The position numbers and the translations under genes were made by a program. Below are positions 1 through 16,809 of a DNA stretch of 64,000 bases, piece by piece (the stretch's first letter is position 1; every line of letters starts with the position of its first letter). This DNA comes from Escherichia coli. Its GTDB lineage: Bacteria; Pseudomonadota; Gammaproteobacteria; Enterobacterales; Enterobacteriaceae. Under the pieces are notes generated by a model, which saw only the letters and a list, made by a program, of their open reading frames with translations, was not told where the DNA came from and did not search any database. The DNA lies in NCBI RefSeq assembly GCF_003334255.1, contig NZ_QOWU01000018.1; one strand, 5' to 3'.

Positions 1-77
1 AGCTGATAGAAACAGAAGCCACTGGAGCACCTCAAAAACACCATCATACACTAAATCAGTAAGTTGGCAGCATCACC
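1..77 (-). mobile_element. IS1 terminal segment (left inverted repeat plus first codons of insA); element body lies beyond window start
   Basis: Positions 1-77 are the reverse complement of the IS1 IRL end as I recall it (GGTGATGCTGCCAACTTACTGATTTAGTG...CTATCAGCT); reading leftwards from pos 22 gives GTG GCT TCT GTT TCT ATC AGC = start of InsA (MASVSIS). Confidence 0.85.
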
Positions 78-363
78 CGCTTGTAGAATGGCGGATTTGG
101 TTTGAAGCCTATTTTTTACTCTGCTATGTACCGTGCTTAATTTACTATTTTTTCTATTGTCGATTCCTCTGGCATAACGATTTTATGATGGCATGTGACA
201 TGTATTTCCGTTGGGGGCATTTTAATAAGTGAGGAAGTGATAGGAAGTGACCAGATAATACATATATGTTCTGTACTCTCTTGCGCATTTTGATTGTTGA
301 CTGAGTAACCAGACAGTTGATGTGCACGATTTCCCCTCGCCCTAACAGACGTGGGCGGGGGCA

Positions 364-967
364 CCCGGTGTGTGCAATATACGAAAAAAAAGCCCGTACT
401 TTCGTACGAGCTCTTCTTTAAATATGGCGGTGAGGGGGGGATTGACTCGCTTCGCTCGCCCTGCGGGCAGCCCGCTCACTGCGTTCACGGTCTGTCCAAC
501 TGGCTGTCGCCAGTTGTCGAACCCCGGTCGGGGCTTCTCATCCCCCCGGTGTGTGCAATATACGAAAAAAAAGCCCGTACTTTCGTACGAGCTCTTCTTT
601 AAATATGGCGGTGAGGGGGGGATTGACTCGCTTCGCTCGCCCTGCGGGCAGCCCGCTCACTGCGTTCACGGTCTGTCCAACTGGCTGTCGCCAGTTGTCG
701 AACCCCGGTCGGGGCTTCTCATCCCCCCGGTGTGTGCAATATACGAAAAAAAAGCCCGTACTTTCGTACGAGCTCTTCTTTAAATATGGCGGTGAGGGGG
801 GGATTGACTCGCTTCGCTCGCCCTGCGGGCAGCCCGCTCACTGCGTTCACGGTCTGTCCAACTGGCTGTCGCCAGTTGTCGAACCCCGGTCGGGGCTTCT
901 CATCCCCCCGGTGTGTGCAATATACGAAAAAAAAGCCCGTACTTTCGTACGAGCTCTTCTTTAAATA
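364..967. repeat. Tandem direct repeat array, 181-bp unit x about 3.3 copies, immediately downstream (in transcription direction) of serX
   Basis: Identical sequence recurs with period 181 (e.g. tggcggtgaggggggg at 425, 606, 787 and in the tRNA at 968); the identical ORF-track proteins at 370, 551 and 732 confirm the period. Confidence 0.95.
927..954 (-). terminator. Intrinsic terminator of serX (8-bp stem, GAAA loop, T8 on minus strand); copied in each repeat unit at 746-773, 565-592, 384-411
   Basis: Minus strand reads gctcgtacGAAAgtacgggc followed by tttttttt directly after the tRNA CCA end. Confidence 0.7.
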
Positions 968-1055
968 TGGCGGTGAGGGGGGGATTCGAACCCCCGATAC
1001 GTTGCCGTATACACACTTTCCAGGCGTGCTCCTTCAGCCACTCGGACACCTCACC
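968..1055 (-). tRNA. serX: tRNA-Ser (anticodon GGA)
   Basis: 88-nt reverse complement GGTGAGGTGTCCGAGTGGCTGAAGGAGCACGCCTGGAAAGTGTGTATACGGCAACGTATCGGGGGTTCGAATCCCCCCCTCACCGCCA; long variable arm, encoded CCA. Confidence 0.95.
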
Positions 1056-1249
1056 AAATTGTCGTTCCTGTCTTGCTGGAACGGGCGCTAATTTAGGGAA
1101 ATCATGACCTGAGGTCAACAAACTTTTTGAAAAAATCGCGCGTTTATTCAAACTTCAATCAATGTGTGGTTTTAATAAGCGAAATCTGCTTTTTTTGCCA
1201 CCGACCACGGATTTGTTATGCTGGTGGCCTTTGTAGATCATAACGATAA

Positions 1250-2227
<978 letters not shown>

Positions 2228-2281
2228 TAAAGCATCAGGATTCCTGCTATCCTTGGCGGGAATTGAATACAGGAGAGAGTT

Positions 2282-3019
2282 ATGTATCCCGTCGACCTTC
2301 ATATGCATACCGTTGCCAGCACACATGCATATAGCACATTAAGTGATTACATTGCCCAGGCCAAACAAAAGGGCATTAAACTTTTTGCGATCACCGATCA
2401 TGGCCCGGATATGGAAGATGCGCCGCATCACTGGCACTTCATTAACATGCGTATCTGGCCGCGAGTGGTTGATGGGGTAGGGATCCTGCGCGGCATCGAA
2501 GCTAACATTAAAAATGTTGATGGTGAAATTGACTGCAGCGGTAAAATGTTTGACTCGCTGGATCTAATTATTGCCGGTTTTCATGAGCCGGTTTTTGCGC
2601 CACATGACAAAGCGACCAATACACAAGCGATGATCGCCACTATCGCCAGCGGCAATGTGCATATAATAAGCCATCCCGGAAATCCCAAATATGAAATAGA
2701 TGTGAAAGCCGTTGCTGAAGCAGCCGCGAAACATCAGGTGGCGCTGGAAATCAATAATTCCTCATTTTTACACTCACGTAAGGGCAGTGAAGACAACTGT
2801 CGTGAGGTAGCCGCAGCGGTACGTGATGCTGGAGGTTGGGTGGCATTAGGCTCGGATTCTCACACCGCGTTTACCATGGGGGAATTTGAAGAGTGTCTTA
2901 AAATCCTCGACGCGGTAGATTTTCCGCCAGAGCGCATTTTGAATGTTTCTCCGCGCCGCTTACTGAACTTCCTTGAATCTCGCGGTATGGCACCGATTGC
3001 GGAATTTGCAGACCTTTAA
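2282..3019 (+). CDS. ycdX: PHP-domain phosphatase YcdX
   Basis: 245 aa, N-terminal [14 protein letters not shown] metal-binding motif typical of PHP domain. Confidence 0.93.
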
Positions 3020-3042
3020 TTACTAGTAATGGAAATATATTA

Positions 3043-3597
3043 ATGAACGAGTTTTCTATCCTCTGTCGTGTGCTGGGTTCGCTCTATTACCGCCAACCAC
3101 AAGATCCTTTACTGGTGCCGCTGTTTACCCTGATTCGTGAGGGGAAACTGGCTGCGAACTGGCCACTGGAGCAGGATGAGTTGCTGACACGTTTGCAGAA
3201 AAGCTGTGATATGACGCAAGTCTCTGCCGATTACAATGCGTTGTTTATCGGCGATGAATGTGCTGTGCCGCCATATCGTAGCGCATGGGTTGAGGGCGCG
3301 ACGGAAGCGGAAGTGCGCGCTTTTCTTTCTGAGCGAGGGATGCCATTAGCGGATACGCCAGCCGATCACATCGGCACATTGCTGCTCGCAGCTTCCTGGC
3401 TGGAAGATCAGTCAACGGAAGATGAGAGCGAAGCACTGGAAACACTGTTCAGTGAGTATCTGTTACCCTGGTGTGGTGCGTTCCTTGGCAAAGTGGAGGC
3501 CCATGCAACCACGCCTTTCTGGCGCACCATGGCACCGCTAACCCGCGATGCCATTAGTGCAATGTGGGACGAGCTGGAAGAAGATTCTGAAGAATAA
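3043..3597 (+). CDS. ycdY: TorD-family chaperone YcdY
   Basis: 184-aa ORF immediately after ycdX, sequence recognised. Confidence 0.9.
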   Translation: MNEFSILCRVLGSLYYRQPQDPLLVPLFTLIREGKLAANWPLEQDELLTRLQKSCDMTQVSADYNALFIGDECAVPPYRSAWVEGATEAEVRAFLSERGMPLADTPADHIGTLLLAASWLEDQSTEDESEALETLFSEYLLPWCGAFLGKVEAHATTPFWRTMAPLTRDAISAMWDELEEDSEE

Positions 3598-3698
3598 GTG
3601 TGATCTACGTCACTCATAACTGCAACGGATAATTTGTTGTTGCATAAAATGTGTGCTCGATCTCATTCATGGCCGCGTTTTCTGCTATCATGCGCGGC

Positions 3699-4190
3699 AT
3701 GAACATACTTCTCTCTATTGCAATCACAACAGGCATTCTCTCCGGTATCTGGGGATGGGTGGCTGTTTCCCTGGGCTTACTAAGCTGGGCGGGCTTCCTG
3801 GGCTGTACGGCCTACTTTGCCTGCCCGCAAGGTGGGCTGAAAGGGCTGGCGATCTCCGCTGCAACCCTGCTTAGTGGCGTGGTGTGGGCGATGGTCATTA
3901 TTTACGGTAGTGCACTGGCACCACATCTGGAAATTCTCGGTTATGTCATAACCGGTATTGTCGCGTTTCTGATGTGTATTCAGGCCAAACAGCTGCTGCT
4001 TTCATTTGTTCCGGGGACGTTTATAGGCGCATGCGCGACGTTTGCCGGGCAGGGTGACTGGAAACTGGTGTTACCTTCGCTGGCGCTTGGGCTGATATTT
4101 GGTTACGCAATGAAAAACAGTGGCCTGTGGCTGGCGGCGCGTAGTGCAAAGACGGCGCACCGTGAGCAGGAAATCAAAAATAAAGCGTGA
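3699..4190 (+). CDS. ycdZ: Inner membrane protein YcdZ (DUF1097)
   Basis: ORF 3651..4190; start placed at ATG 3699 (MNILLSIAITTGIL) giving 163 aa; hydrophobic throughout. Confidence 0.85.
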   Translation: MNILLSIAITTGILSGIWGWVAVSLGLLSWAGFLGCTAYFACPQGGLKGLAISAATLLSGVVWAMVIIYGSALAPHLEILGYVITGIVAFLMCIQAKQLLLSFVPGTFIGACATFAGQGDWKLVLPSLALGLIFGYAMKNSGLWLAARSAKTAHREQEIKNKA

Positions 4191-4253
4191 GGGGCACTCA
4201 CGCTTTCGCTTAAACAGTAAAATGCCGGATGATAATTCCGGCTTTTTTATCTG

Positions 4254-5087
4254 TCAGGATTCCGGTGGAACCGACATATGGCGGTATTTCACCAGAATGT
4301 CATTCTGCCGTTCTGCTTTATTTTGCAAATCCCACAGACCACGGTCGATACCATCATTAATCAGGAAAATGACCCCTGTTTCGATAGCCGACATCAGGCA
4401 CAGCATAACAGGTTCGTTCGAGGTGTAACCCACTTCCCCTTCAAGCAAGCGCTGGTAGTCAATAAAGCGGAAAACCCCGGCCTGAACTTCATAGGAAAGT
4501 ATCGTCTTACTGGTGTTCACCGAAGAAAGGATCTCGCCGGTACTCACATTGACGACGCGCAGGTTCACGGCAATCTGATCGAGCTGGTATTGCGTGTCGG
4601 CACCGATGCCAAAATATCTTGCCCCAACCCCGCCAGATTTGACGTTGCTTTCATAACCGATAATCGAACCTTCAACCATGATATTTGCCGCCGTTAAAGA
4701 TTGCAGCGGGATTCGGTTATTAATGGCAACCGTGCCGTTTTCTTGTGCCGCACGAATAATCTTGCGCTCGTTAAGCAGGTTTTGTAAGCCCTGGCGCTCC
4801 AGCGGTATAAACCAGCGAGAATCTTTCAGTGCCGTGACCAGCATTGCCGTGGCGCTTTGCGGAACAGCAGTGGAGAAGTTACTTGCCGGGTAGGGTTTAA
4901 ATTGCCCGGTTTCGTCCTGAATGTTGTATACCGAAACAAAGATTTTACCCGTCGGCGCTGGCAGATGGGTCAAATCTTTGTAGCTCTGAGCACGAGGCAT
5001 TAATGTCGGTCTGGCGGCTTCTTTAGGCGGGGCGGTTAAGCATCCGCTCAGTAACATGACGGCAACCAAAAGAAATAAGCGCTGCAT
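4254..5087 (-). CDS. csgG: Curli secretion channel lipoprotein CsgG
   Basis: 277 aa, lipoprotein signal MQRLFLLVAVMLLSGC. Confidence 0.96.
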   Translation of the reverse strand: MQRLFLLVAVMLLSGCLTAPPKEAARPTLMPRAQSYKDLTHLPAPTGKIFVSVYNIQDETGQFKPYPASNFSTAVPQSATAMLVTALKDSRWFIPLERQGLQNLLNERKIIRAAQENGTVAINNRIPLQSLTAANIMVEGSIIGYESNVKSGGVGARYFGIGADTQYQLDQIAVNLRVVNVSTGEILSSVNTSKTILSYEVQAGVFRFIDYQRLLEGEVGYTSNEPVMLCLMSAIETGVIFLINDGIDRGLWDLQNKAERQNDILVKYRHMSVPPES

Positions 5088-5113
5088 GATTATTTTCCTT
5101 ATGAAGCTGGGGC

Positions 5114-5530
5114 TTAAAAATCGGTTGAGTTATTTTGTAAACCCGAAACCTGGATGGTCGAGGTTTGTCCGGTTTTACGATCTGTCACGTTCAACTGCAA
5201 TTGACCATCGCGGTTGGCAATATCGATAATATAATCGTTGGTCACCATGCGGCCCGGTTTACCGGTATTAATATTCGACAGTAGCCCACCTAAAATTTGT
5301 GACTGGATGGCCTGAGTAAAGTTATCTAACGCTGAGGGTGTTTCAATACCAAAGTCATCGTTATAGCTCGGATCTTTATAAGAGTTTTGGGCCTGAGCGC
5401 TATTTAATAAAAAAGCGCCATTATTTGGGTTACCACCAAAGTTTGGATTACGGAACTGGAAAGTCATGGTTCCAGCCCAACTTAATGGCGAAATAAGCAT
5501 GAGTAGAACTACTGCATGTTTGACACGCAT
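5114..5530 (-). CDS. csgF: Curli assembly protein CsgF
   Basis: 138 aa with signal peptide; in csgDEFG order. Confidence 0.95.
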
Positions 5531-5554
5531 TGCAGCCTCCGAACAATTTTTTAT

Positions 5555-5944
5555 TTAGAATTCATCATGCGCCAAATCGCCCGTACTTAATAACGCCTGA
5601 TTTATTTGGCGACGATTTAGTGCTTCTTCAGTTTGAATCAGTGCAAAGACGACAGTTTTCTCGAAGTCTCTTTTCAACGGAAATAAAAAAGTCTGGAAAA
5701 TAACGTCCTGATTGACCGTTATAGTGATCCAGCTTCCCCATCGTGCACTGGGCCTTTCATTAATCGTTAAGTTACCCGTATAGTCACTTTCCCATTTATC
5801 ACTAAAGGCTCGGTAAAAATCATGGCCAATAGATGAAACAGTATGGTCAGTTAGCAATCCCGGGACTTCTACCTCAACGGCGTGAAGATTCCCTGCGGCG
5901 AACAGAAATTCTGCCGCCACAATCCAGCGTAAATAACGTTTCAT
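5555..5944 (-). CDS. csgE: Curli secretion specificity factor CsgE
   Basis: 129 aa with signal peptide. Confidence 0.95.
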
Positions 5945-5948
5945 GGCT

Positions 5949-6599
<651 letters not shown>

Positions 6600-7353
6600 G
6601 ATGAAACCCCGCTTTTTTTATTGATCGCACACCTGACAGCTGCCTCTAAAATAGAAGCACCAGAAGTACTGACAGATGTTGCACTGCTGTGTGTAGTAAT
6701 AAATCAGCCCTAAATGGGTAAAATATAAAACTAATGGATTACATCTGATTTCAATCTAGCCATTACAAATCTTAAATCAAGTGTTAAACATGTAACTAAA
6801 TGTAACTCGTTATATTAAAATGTTAACCTTAAGGTTTTATTAAGTTTAGAAATGATAGAAAAGTTGTACATTTGGTTTTTATTGCACAATTTTAAAAAAT
6901 CATACAAATGGTGATAACTTACTAATAATGCATATAAAAAATATTTCGGTGTAGTCCTTTCGTCATGTAAAACGTTCTTGTTTTTTCTCCACACCTCCGT
7001 GGACAATTTTTTACTGCAAAAAGACGAGGTTTGTCACGGCTTGTGCGCAAGACATATCGCAGCAATCAGCGACGGGCAAGAAGAATGACTGTCTGGTGCT
7101 TTTTGATAGCGGAAAACGGAGATTTAAAAGAAAACAAAATATTTTTTTGCGTAGATAACAGCGTATTTACGTGGGTTTTAATACTTTGGTATGAACTAAA
7201 AAAGAAAAATACAACGCGCGGGTGAGTTATTAAAAATATTTCCGCAGACATACTTTCCATCGTAACGCAGCGTTAACAAAATACAGGTTGCGTTAACAAC
7301 CAAGTTGAAATGATTTAATTTCTTAAATGTACGACCAGGTCCAGGGTGACAAC
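6600..7353. promoter_or_regulatory. Divergent csgD-csgB intergenic control region (csgD promoter and long 5' leader, csgB promoter)
   Basis: 754-bp AT-rich spacer between divergent csgD and csgB start codons. Confidence 0.85.
6781..6806 (-). promoter_or_regulatory. OmpR-type binding site in the csgD promoter
   Basis: Minus-strand sequence GTTACATTTAGTTACATGTTTAACAC matches the csgD OmpR box as I recall it; sits about 180-210 nt upstream of the csgD ATG. Confidence 0.55.
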
Positions 7354-7809
7354 ATGAAAAACAAATTGTTATTTATGATGTTAACAATACTGGGTGCGCC
7401 TGGGATTGCAGCCGCAGCAGGTTATGATTTAGCTAATTCAGAATATAACTTCGCGGTAAATGAATTGAGTAAGTCTTCATTTAATCAGGCAGCCATAATT
7501 GGTCAAGCTGGGACTAATAATAGTGCTCAGTTACGGCAGGGAGGCTCAAAACTTTTGGCGGTTGTTGCGCAAGAAGGTAGTAGCAACCGGGCAAAGATTG
7601 ACCAGACAGGAGATTATAACCTTGCATATATTGATCAGGCGGGCAGTGCCAACGATGCCAGTATTTCGCAAGGTGCTTATGGTAATACTGCGATGATTAT
7701 CCAGAAAGGTTCTGGTAATAAAGCAAATATTACACAGTATGGTACTCAAAAAACGGCAATTGTAGTGCAGAGACAGTCGCAAATGGCTATTCGCGTGACA
7801 CAACGTTAA
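7354..7809 (+). CDS. csgB: Minor curlin subunit / nucleator CsgB
   Basis: ORF 7327..7809; start at ATG 7354 (MKNKLLFMMLTILGAPGIAAA) gives 151 aa. Confidence 0.95.
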   Translation: MKNKLLFMMLTILGAPGIAAAAGYDLANSEYNFAVNELSKSSFNQAAIIGQAGTNNSAQLRQGGSKLLAVVAQEGSSNRAKIDQTGDYNLAYIDQAGSANDASISQGAYGNTAMIIQKGSGNKANITQYGTQKTAIVVQRQSQMAIRVTQR

Positions 7810-7849
7810 TTTCCATTCGACTTTTAAATCAATCCGATGGGGGTTTTAC

Positions 7850-8305
7850 ATGAAACTTTTAAAAGTAGCAGCAATTGCAGCAATCGTATTCTCCGGTAGC
7901 GCTCTGGCAGGTGTTGTTCCTCAGTACGGCGGCGGCGGTAACCACGGTGGTGGCGGTAATAATAGCGGCCCAAATTCTGAGCTGAACATTTACCAGTACG
8001 GTGGCGGTAACTCTGCACTTGCTCTGCAAACTGATGCCCGTAACTCTGACTTGACTATTACCCAGCATGGCGGCGGTAATGGTGCAGATGTTGGTCAGGG
8101 CTCAGATGACAGCTCAATCGATCTGACCCAACGTGGCTTCGGTAACAGCGCTACTCTTGATCAGTGGAACGGCAAAAATTCTGAAATGACGGTTAAACAG
8201 TTCGGTGGTGGCAACGGTGCTGCAGTTGACCAGACTGCATCTAACTCCTCCGTCAACGTGACTCAGGTTGGCTTTGGTAACAACGCGACCGCTCATCAGT
8301 ACTAA
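7850..8305 (+). CDS. csgA: Major curlin subunit CsgA
   Basis: 151 aa, signal peptide plus Gly/Asn/Gln-rich imperfect repeats (SELNIYQYGGGN, SDLTITQHGGGN). Confidence 0.97.
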   Translation: MKLLKVAAIAAIVFSGSALAGVVPQYGGGGNHGGGGNNSGPNSELNIYQYGGGNSALALQTDARNSDLTITQHGGGNGADVGQGSDDSSIDLTQRGFGNSATLDQWNGKNSEMTVKQFGGGNGAAVDQTASNSSVNVTQVGFGNNATAHQY

Positions 8306-8324
8306 TACATCATTTGTATTACAG

Positions 8325-8351
8325 AAACAGGGCGCAAGCCCTGTTTTTTTT
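8325..8351 (+). terminator. Intrinsic terminator after csgA
   Basis: aaacagggcGCAAgccctgttt hairpin followed by a T-run. Confidence 0.7.
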
Positions 8352-8363
8352 CGGGAGAAGAAT

Positions 8364-9128
<765 letters not shown>

Positions 9129-9222
9129 GTTTCTGAACAACTCACGTTGCTGAGCAGAAAAATGCGATTTAACCAAAAAGCCTGCTGTACACTTAAGAAA
9201 CAAGAAGGTGTAAGGAGGCGTT

Positions 9223-9756
9223 ATGAAAACGCGTATTCATGTTGTGCAGGGTGATATTACCAAACTGGCCGTTGATGTGATTGTGAATGCGGCTAATCCG
9301 TCATTAATGGGAGGCGGCGGCGTCGATGGGGCCATTCATCGCGCAGCGGGTCCGGCCCTGCTGGATGCTTGTTTAAAAGTCAGGCAACAGCAGGGCGATT
9401 GCCCTACGGGGCATGCCGTTATTACGCTTGCAGGCGATCTTCCCGCTAAAGCCGTAGTGCACACCGTCGGGCCAGTCTGGCGTGGTGGTGAACAAAACGA
9501 AGACCAGCTTTTGCAGGATGCCTATCTCAATAGCCTACGACTGGTGGCGGCAAACAGCTATACGTCAGTGGCTTTTCCTGCAATCAGTACTGGGGTTTAT
9601 GGTTACCCTCGTGCGGCAGCGGCTGAAATCGCAGTAAAAACCGTTTCAGAATTTATTACCCGTCACGCTTTACCCGAACAGGTATACTTTGTCTGTTATG
9701 ATGAAGAAAACGCCCACCTCTACGAAAGACTCCTTACCCAACAAGGAGATGAATGA
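9223..9756 (+). CDS. ymdB: Macrodomain protein YmdB (O-acetyl-ADP-ribose deacetylase)
   Basis: 177 aa, macro-domain motifs ([24 protein letters not shown]). Confidence 0.95.
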
Positions 9757-11179
9757 TTTGCCCCGGCTGGCGAGCGCGGTGCTGCCACTGTGTTCGCAAC
9801 ATCCCGGTCAGTGTGGCCTTTTTCCTCTGGAGAAAAGTCTGGATGCGTTTGCCGCCCGGTATCGTCTGGCCGAAATGGCAGAGCATACGCTCGATGTTCA
9901 GTATTACATCTGGCAGGACGATATGTCGGGTCGGTTACTGTTTTCCGCCCTGTTAGCCGCAGCAAAGCGTGGCGTTCGCGTCCGTTTGTTGCTGGACGAC
10001 AACAATACGCCCGGACTTGACGACATTTTACGCTTGCTTGACAGTCATCCACGCATTGAAGTCCGGCTTTTTAATCCTTTCTCGTTTCGCTTGCTGCGTC
10101 CGCTTGGTTATATCACCGACTTTTCCCGTCTTAATCGCCGTATGCACAATAAAAGTTTCACTGTCGATGGCGTGGTGACCCTGGTGGGAGGACGAAATAT
10201 TGGTGATGCCTATTTTGGAGCAGGGGAGGAGCCACTTTTTTCGGATTTAGATGTCATGGCAATAGGACCCGTGGTAGAGGACGTTGCCGATGATTTCGCC
10301 CGCTACTGGTATTGCAAATCGGTTTCACCCTTACAGCAGGTGCTGGATGTCCCGGAGGGTGAAATGGCGGATCGCATCGAGTTACCCGCCTCCTGGCATA
10401 ACGATGCCATGACGCATCGTTATTTACGCAAAATGGAATCCAGTCCATTTATAAATCATCTGGTTGATGGAACATTGCCGCTTATCTGGGCGAAGACACG
10501 TTTATTAAGTGATGATCCGGCGAAAGGGGAGGGCAAGGCAAAACGGCATTCACTGTTACCGCAGCGCCTGTTCGATATCATGGGCTCACCCAGTGAACGC
10601 ATCGATATTATCTCTTCCTATTTTGTACCGACACGCGCAGGTGTGGCGCAACTCTTACGGATGGTGAGAAAAGGGGTAAAGATTGCGATCCTAACCAATT
10701 CTCTTGCCGCTAACGATGTTGCTGTCGTCCATGCCGGATACGCGCGCTGGCGCAAAAAATTGCTCCGCTATGGCGTGGAATTATATGAACTCAAGCCGAC
10801 GCGTGAACAAAGTAGTACGTTACACGATCGCGGCATAACCGGTAATTCCGGAGCCAGCCTGCATGCTAAAACCTTTAGCATCGATGGTAAAACGGTGTTT
10901 ATCGGCTCTTTCAATTTCGATCCGCGTTCAACATTGCTCAATACTGAAATGGGCTTCGTGATAGAGAGCGAAACGCTGGCACAGTTAATTGATAAACGCT
11001 TTATTCAGAGCCAGTATGATGCGGCCTGGCAGCTCCGTCTGGACAGGTGGGGACGGATCAACTGGGTTGATCGTCATGCAAAGAAAGAGATTATTCTCAA
11101 AAAAGAACCCGCCACCAGTTTCTGGAAGCGGGTTATGGTCAGACTGGCGTCGATATTGCCCGTGGAATGGTTATTGTAA
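9749..11179 (+). CDS. clsC: Cardiolipin synthase C (phospholipase D family)
   Basis: ORF 9689..11179; ATG at 9749 overlaps the ymdB stop; the database protein may start at TTG 9758 (473 aa); HxK PLD motifs present (RMHNKSF, LHAKTF). Confidence 0.9.
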
Positions 11180-11186
11180 ATGTGGC

Positions 11187-12344
11187 TTAACGGGCTGGTG
11201 CTTTATCGTTCTCACGCTTAACAACCGGTTTACCAGAGAACAAAAACTTCAGTAACGGGATGCGCAAATGAATTTCATACAGAATTATCGCAATCCCTAC
11301 TACAAATATCAGGCCACAGAGAAAACCAAGCCAGTTGGAGGTGATGTGCGGTGTAATGTATGCGCCGAAAAACAGCGTTAACGGGTGGTGAACCAGATAG
11401 ATAAACAGCGATGCGTTAACAAAATAAGTCACCCGCGCTGACTGGAAGTTAAGCAAACGGTGGCCAAAGGAGAAGACCACATTCACCATCCACAGACCGA
11501 GGACCATGGTGATCACCGACTCGGTTTCGTACATCCAGGCATCGCCACTGCCATAGCGCTGGTTGAGTAAATAAGCGACAAACGCCAATGCTGCTGCAAG
11601 GGTACAGCCACGAGACGGCGTGGTAAACAAGGCTTTAAGATGAGGGAAAATGAAAGCCAGTGCGCCGAGGATAAAGAACGGCAAATAAAACAGCGTTTGC
11701 ATGACAATAAAATTGAACATGCCATTACTCAGAATGGGCGGATACACAATAAAAATCGTTCTTCTTATTACCGCATAACCGATGCCGAGGCATAAAAAAA
11801 TCACCGATAGTTTTACCATCGAGAATTTTTTATTCGTTTTATCAGAATTTTCTAAATTATTTCTGATGCGCTTAAATATCCATACGCACAGCGTCGTCAT
11901 GACCACTAACACCAGTAAAAACCACAGGTGTGATATTAATTCCCAGGCCAACGTATTATATTTGTCATACAATGACAGCCCAGGCCAACTTTCCGCTTTT
12001 CCTTTGACATATTGCAGCATAATAAATTGCGGTAATGTCAGTAGGGGGATGGCTGTTAACATCGGGATACCTACACGTTCGACACGTACTTTCCACCATT
12101 TTTTCAAGGGATAGCGTAAAAAAAGCATGTAGGAAAAGTAGCCGGATATAACGAAAAATACCTGCATGCGGAACGAGTGGATGAAGTCATTAAAAAGGGT
12201 CAGCCACAATGATGATTCGGCGCTATTCACATGCCATGTATGGCTCGAATAGATTAAAGAAATATGAAAAGGTATCCCTAACAACATCAGCCAGGCGCGG
12301 ATGGAGTCGAGGAAATATTCACGTTGCGCGGGTACTGGGTTCAT
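11187..12344 (-). CDS. opgC: Osmoregulated periplasmic glucan succinyltransferase OpgC (acyltransferase-3 family membrane protein)
   Basis: 385 aa, polytopic hydrophobic, sequence recognised. Confidence 0.9.
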
Positions 12345-12626
12345 ATATGGTTAACTAATCTCGGATTTTTCGTCTTATCCCTGTCGGGTTATGCCTTTAG
12401 GCTTGTTGCCATAGTGACACCGACCTGACCGCGCCAGGCGCAGGCTTCAAGGTTTTTATGCATAGCATCATCGCTACCACTAACCAGAATGGAAGCGTCT
12501 GTAAGACGGTTGATAAATAAATTTGCTGGCAAACCCTACACGAAGTCGATGCTTCTGTCTTTAGGAGAAGCACGGAAAGTGAAAACGGTTGCAATCAGGT
12601 GCTTAATCCATGAGCCAGCGTGCTGA

Positions 12627-16809
<4,183 letters not shown>

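Follow-up and report, generated by a model that had tools for sequence, protein, structure and literature searches.

An IS1 end within ycdU beside an empty serX site at the end of an Escherichia coli draft contig

The left edge of a 64,000-nucleotide stretch of Escherichia coli DNA (contig NZ_QOWU01000018.1 of assembly GCF_003334255.1), referred to here as the window, begins with the terminus of an insertion sequence and continues through AT-rich DNA towards the tRNA gene serX. The question raised by this locus is whether the IS1 terminus marks the boundary of a genomic island or an insertion into the ordinary chromosome. The original prediction, made from the letters of the sequence alone, described an IS1 end followed by non-coding DNA and left room for an island boundary, with any accessory content further to the left. 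The feature is very probably an ordinary IS1 insertion in ycdU, located at the end of a draft contig and accompanied by its native flank. IS1 insertion is an event of an already known, ordinary kind.

The IS1 end and the contig end

The first 77 bases of the window (1-77, minus strand) are the terminal 77 bp of the left (IRL) end of IS1, as predicted. The 23-bp left inverted repeat, GGTGATGCTGCCAACTTACTGAT, lies on the minus strand of 55-77 with no mismatch, and a motif search found no match to it in 100 shuffles. All 77 bases are 100% identical to each of the IS1 left ends of the compared loci (16/16). The GTG start of insA occupies 22-20 (minus strand); the gene is read leftwards, and its first seven codons (translation VASVSIS) fall inside the window. 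Within the same IS1 end there is a sigma-70-like promoter site, running from 70 to 43 on the minus strand. The insA promoter is known to be located in the IRL of IS1, and this predicted site is taken to represent it.

IS1 contains insA followed by insB', which is expressed via a programmed frameshift, and insertion generates a 9-bp target-site duplication. The terminal inverted repeats are about 23 bp in length, with IRL starting GGTGATGCTGCC and IRR starting GGTAATGACTCC; the right end of the element reads GGTAATGACTCCAACTTA. The window shares the exact 23-bp IRL, the insA start and the promoter-like site with IS1 of the IS1A/IS1R type. Its target is also AT-rich, as is known of IS1 insertions, with ycdU at 40.5% GC. 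The full element is 768 bp in length, whereas the window contains 77 bp of it; beyond the record lie insB, the right end and the other copy of the target. The IRR is seen on the copy with an identical junction in the complete genome NZ_CM146015.1 (locus L001, bases 5310-5332).

Base 1 of the window is base 1 of the GenBank draft contig QOWU01000018.1 (88,796 bp; assembly GCA_003334255.1), and bases 1-15530 of that record are 100% identical to window 1-15530. The remainder of the IS1 is therefore outside the record, since the window starts at the physical end of the contig. The sequence breaks off after 77 bases of IS1 because the draft assembly broke at a multi-copy repeat. The expectation of an IS1 copy just outside the window is thus confirmed for the IS1 end, with the correction that the rest is beyond the record itself and not merely beyond the window. 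A second draft with the same junction, L022, contains 44 more bases of IS1 than the window, and its IS1 part encodes a 22-aa fragment matching the Pfam family Zn_ribbon_InsA.

The sole protein record that extends across the junction, found on QOWU01000018.1 only, is RCQ41705.1 (‘hypothetical protein APT10_10605, partial’; window 2-232, plus strand). It is a read-through in frame 2 that runs antisense to insA in the IS1 part and continues into what remains of the ycdU 3′ end. No stop interrupts plus frame 2 between base 2 and the TGA at 230-232, but a hybrid IS1-ycdU protein was rejected: the frame has no start codon before an FMM near its end, and in the sequence of draft L022 it is shut by a TGA 11-13 bases to the left of the window. 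RCQ41705.1 is therefore an annotation artefact of the contig edge.

The ycdU remnant and the serX site

Identity to K-12 (an MG1655 derivative) begins exactly at base 78, which corresponds to nt 833 of ycdU; the sequence of the junction between IS1 and ycdU is GGCAGCATCACCCGCTTGTAG. The stretch from 78 to 232 on the plus strand is the 3′ remnant of the gene (nt 833-987); it starts within codon 278 and runs through codons 279-328 to the TGA stop at 230-232. Its DNA is 100% identical to K-12. Translation of 80-232 yields the exact C-terminal 50 residues and stop of K-12 YcdU. The first nine bases, CGCTTGTAG (78-86, unstranded; ycdU nt 833-841), are probably the right-hand copy of the IS1 target site, as judged from the start of K-12 identity at base 78 and from the left junction of the read-archive contig L026 described below. 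The remnant is followed by the native intergenic spacer between ycdU and serX (233-363, unstranded), which is identical to the unoccupied K-12 arrangement and is kept to the left of the island in O157.

A comparison of 78-363 with E. coli genomes, suggested to separate native flank from island-derived DNA, shows that the flank is native. It is 100% identical to K-12, and 2670 of the 5426 complete E. coli genomes contain it, always with the annotation ycdU. The region is AT-rich as described, with 42.0% GC vs 50.8% for the whole window (37% for the ycdU remnant and 47% for the spacer). Its description as non-coding holds for 233-363 only, as 78-232 consists of ycdU codons; the remnant was overlooked because it has no start codon. 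YcdU contains several strongly hydrophobic 19-residue stretches, and ycdU is the membrane-protein gene expected on this side of serX in K-12. Six matches to the 78-363 flank come from records that are classed as plasmid.

The 75-aa minus-strand ORF at 137-364 does exist. It was not accepted as a gene, being antisense to ycdU and having no annotation in the K-12-derived record. No NCBIfam family was found for this ORF, for full-length YcdU or for the C-terminal remnant. Rfam has no family in 78-363, and its RtT-like units begin at 425.

These units belong to a 181-bp tandem array of 3.4 copies (364-986, minus strand; RtT-like units at 425-561, 606-742 and 787-923, from Rfam and repeat analysis), which leads into serX, the gene for tRNA-Ser (GGA), at 968-1055 on the minus strand. 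The 3′ end of serX, TGGCGGTGAGGGGG, recurs in every unit of the array and is the attachment repeat of islands at this locus. The array is 100% self-identical in the window, and K-12 differs at 521 and 561. Its copy number varies among genomes, with one unit fewer in NZ_CM146015.1 and in draft L022. Both the copy number and the perfect identity in the draft may be products of assembly.

The serX gene is an integration site of islands, as had been proposed. It has been reported that OI-48 of EDL933 and SpLE1 of Sakai are integrated in serX and flanked by the 14-bp repeat TGGCGGTGAGGGGG, with ycdU as the upstream chromosomal gene of OI-48 (PMC3064760). A further case is the CP4-like island at serX in PQIJ01000013.1 (GCA_002991645.1; L020, reverse complement of 1-4990), a close relative of the window that carries the CsgF V102I change. 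There the island replaces the array at the serX 3′ end and encodes CbtA/CbeA toxin-antitoxin, RadC, antirestriction and DUF4942 genes.

The locus of the window shares with OI-48/SpLE1, the tellurite-resistance and adherence island, both ycdU as upstream backbone gene and the TGGCGGTGAGGGGG repeat in every array unit. It differs in that OI-48/SpLE1 contains an integrase and island DNA between ycdU and serX, and the window has neither. In O157:H7 a copied serX 3′ end comes after the equivalent of 78-363, at about window-equivalent 436, and a tyrosine integrase and the island genes follow. From this layout and the published description (PMC3064760), serX islands lie between the ycdU flank and serX, rightwards of position 363. 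Over 78-1300 the window and K-12 are collinear, and no annotated gene or integrase occurs between ycdU and serX. The attachment site is empty, in the K-12 arrangement: neither an integrase nor foreign DNA separates the tRNA repeat from the backbone flank. The 78-363 flank itself is backbone and not island DNA, as O157 keeps it outside its island. The idea of an island boundary at this point is accordingly not upheld. Accessory content to the left of the window, as the original prediction supposed, has a slight chance.

The gene context of ycdU differs between lineages. In O157:H7 (L004 1-6155) it stands last in an intact cluster with an ABC transporter, a lipoprotein-sorting-like protein and a full-length ACP S-malonyltransferase. 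In K-12-like strains (L015 11946-13285) the cluster has been truncated by an IS3, which leaves a pseudogene and ycdU.

The proposed course of events is that a canonical IS1 transposed into ycdU, the AT-rich gene of an uncharacterised hydrophobic protein that adjoins serX in K-12-like E. coli. The IS1 left end would have come to abut nt 833 of ycdU (codon 278), with insA transcribed away from serX. Such an insertion would sever the last 51 codons of ycdU and would leave the spacer, the repeat array and serX untouched.

IS1 events in ycdU among other genomes

Among 5426 complete genomes the identical junction occurs only in NZ_CM146015.1 (strain YZ_2_2_complete). This genome contains a complete 768-bp IS1 at the junction, annotated as a frameshifted IS1 transposase. 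On its left side the right end of the IS1 borders directly on the ACP S-malonyltransferase pseudogene, after which come IS3, dgcT and pgaA. A complete IS1 followed by the usual core neighbours with no cargo, the arrangement that would speak against an island, is thus what is seen in the sole complete genome with the junction. This genome lacks a 9-bp duplication, and it also lacks 968 bp that K-12 has here.

The left junction of this deletion, ACATTTCTGA joined to the IRR, was also recovered from the draft contig SNBA01000187.1 (L027) by exact-protein look-up with the third version of the junction ORF, again with no 9-bp duplication. The two other versions of the deletion-type ORF gave no exact-protein match. 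For the right junction, the exact-protein look-up in read-archive contigs returned no match, and an exact 40-mer over the junction had none in JGI metagenome contigs. A literature search found no paper naming both ycdU and IS1. Strain YZ_2_2_complete has a further IS1 in csgD, the curli master regulator (L001 12074-12830); csgD is intact in the window.

The interruption of ycdU by IS1 is a recurrent event. It is found in ten complete genomes at seven distinct junction sites (nt 278, 391, 441, 485, 678, 695 and 833). Simple insertions with 9-bp duplications account for two of the ten genomes (NH-21 and GZ2408P). The remaining eight, representing six distinct events, contain a single IS1 without target duplication and are missing 968 to 10,048 bp leftwards. 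The deletions end in the ACP S-malonyltransferase pseudogene, pgaA, pgaB, pgaC or pgaD, and take ycdU, IS3, dgcT and part or all of pgaABCD (K-12 locus L015, coordinates 2690-13131). In NRZ106056 an oppositely oriented IS1 links pgaC to window-equivalent base 316.

It is well documented that a target duplication can be lost through adjacent deletion or recombination between IS copies (PMC11708052). The ycdU genomes resemble IS1-bounded deletions produced by either intramolecular adjacent deletion or recombination of direct IS1 copies, with 8/10 having lost sequence next to the IS1 right end. The end points alone do not separate the two mechanisms, and the window shows the right side of the junction alone. 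OkiPb01701 has the same ycdU junction as NH-21, yet is missing 3,959 bp. This pattern would fit an insertion first and an IS1-bounded deletion later.

The sequence around the insertion is that of K-12 with few changes. Window 78-25000 aligns to the K-12-derived strains XL1-Blue and TOP10 in a single piece at a rounded identity of 100.0%, and a comparison of about 50 kb with one MG1655 derivative gives 11 mismatches and a single gap. Nine single-base differences, mostly C>T or G>A, are private to the window in a comparison of about 50 kb with a K-12 derivative and NZ_CM146015.1 (positions 521, 5227, 5606, 16888, 16923, 18914, 22862, 31894 and 41163). The change at 5227, CsgF V102I, is common to AP027626.1 and several drafts. 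On these differences, the source is assigned to a K-12-like natural lineage and not to K-12 itself.

The sublineage of the window is characterised by 5227T and 5606T. Its close relative AP027626.1 has 5227T with ycdU intact, and NZ_CM146015.1 has neither SNP. The SNP comparison of the window with NZ_CM146015.1 did not find the two to be sister strains. The junction is thus present in two SNP backgrounds, and a hot spot or recombination is therefore favoured over one shared event. The 9 bp of CGCTTGTAG may be a sequence-specific hot spot of IS1 with at least two or three independent hits, a reading held tentatively and at somewhat less than an even chance.

The far side of the IS1

A simple insertion in the orientation seen here would leave the remainder of ycdU on the far side of the element. 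With the 9-bp duplication, its predicted product is YcdU residues 1-280 plus Gly, 281 aa in total. A single insertion in the opposite orientation would instead fuse the IS1 right end to the 3′ part of ycdU, giving GGAGTCATTACCCGCTTGTAG. Eight read-archive (Logan) contigs encode a 281-aa truncated YcdU. These are Logan assemblies only, and none is an NCBI draft of the window's lineage, an absence that counts weakly against a simple insertion in the window.

One of the eight contigs, L026 (Logan ERR2010914_912), was read for the IS1 end itself. It consists of 30 nt of an IS3 end, 1,181 nt identical to K-12 whose last bases are CGCTTGTAG, and a 39-nt piece of IS1. At 1203-1250 of L026 the 9-bp target meets a variant IS1 left end, GGTAATGCTACCAAC (beginning GGTAATGCTACC), followed by IRL-type internal sequence in the opposite orientation to the IS1 of the window. 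The variant GGTAATGCTACC has two differences in its first 10 bases and is present in none of the other 16 IS1 copies, and the L026 left junction occurs in no complete genome of the 5426. As the L026 end is of the IRL type, a single IS1 oriented as in the window could not have it as its far end. It would represent either an independent event, with IS1 inserted the other way round in the same 9 bp, or the second arm of a structure with two IS1 copies.

Composite IS1 transposons are known with direct copies, as in Tn9, and with inverted copies, as in Tn1681. The IS1 end of the window might be the right arm of such an element at ycdU nt 833-841, with an inverted pair of IS1 copies, their left ends outward and cargo between. 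The outward left end is compatible with this arrangement, as is the use of the same 9-bp target in other assemblies: the eight read-archive contigs contain ycdU nt 1-841 with CGCTTGTAG and then an IS1 left end, which together with the window junction makes a perfect 9-bp duplication. Exact reuse of a site is also rare, having occurred just once among the other ycdU insertions (NH-21 and OkiPb01701), and possibly there by descent. However, composite transposons hold cargo and none is seen here; the two junction types are on record from different assemblies, and the left-hand IS1 end belongs to a different isoform. NCBI-sourced records do not contain the 281-aa product, and a close relative of the window that shares its junction is among those without it; NZ_CM146015.1 has a single IS1 in place of a pair. 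The occurrence of the window junction in two SNP backgrounds also suggests an IS1 hot spot, at which a third independent hit is plausible. The composite arrangement is consequently considered improbable.

Two further explanations concern the right side of the junction. If 78-363 were the edge of a serX-associated island, the IS1 would mark its boundary; serX is a genuine integration site, as OI-48/SpLE1 and the island of PQIJ01000013.1 attest, and the ycdU flank is AT-rich and present in just 2670 of the 5426 complete genomes. This is highly improbable given that O157 keeps 78-363 on the backbone side of the attachment site, that collinearity of the window with the K-12 derivative starts at base 78 and extends past 50 kb, and that Rfam finds RtT-like repeats alone between ycdU and serX, with no annotated gene or integrase. 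The IS1 end might also be an assembly artefact, a chimeric contig end in place of a true insertion in ycdU. A start at a draft contig end with 77 repeat bases is indeed expected for a break at a shared repeat, but the identical junction in an independent complete genome, and its continuation 44 bases deeper into IS1 in draft L022, make an artefact scarcely credible.

The preferred reading is accordingly that of an ordinary IS1 insertion in ycdU. The record itself shows an IS1 end, a remnant of ycdU, the native spacer and the end of a contig, and several arrangements can be considered for the far side of the IS1. Backbone with a leftward IS1-bounded deletion, of the 968-bp type or larger, is somewhat favoured. 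The remainder of ycdU with the 9-bp CGCTTGTAG duplication, as expected of a simple insertion, has an appreciable chance of about one-third. There is a slight chance of some other IS1-mediated rearrangement, and an equally slight one of extra cargo.

The insertion has little biological weight in itself, as ycdU is uncharacterised, in K-12 it is already the stranded end of an IS3-truncated cluster, and IS1 insertions are routine. In practical terms the apparent boundary is an assembly break at a repeat; with a backbone flank and an empty serX site, no island search is warranted here. As a minor by-product, the comparison shows IS1 insertions and IS1-bounded deletions to recur in ycdU and the neighbouring pga-dgcT region of K-12-like strains. 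In several isolates these deletions remove the genes for the PGA biofilm polysaccharide.
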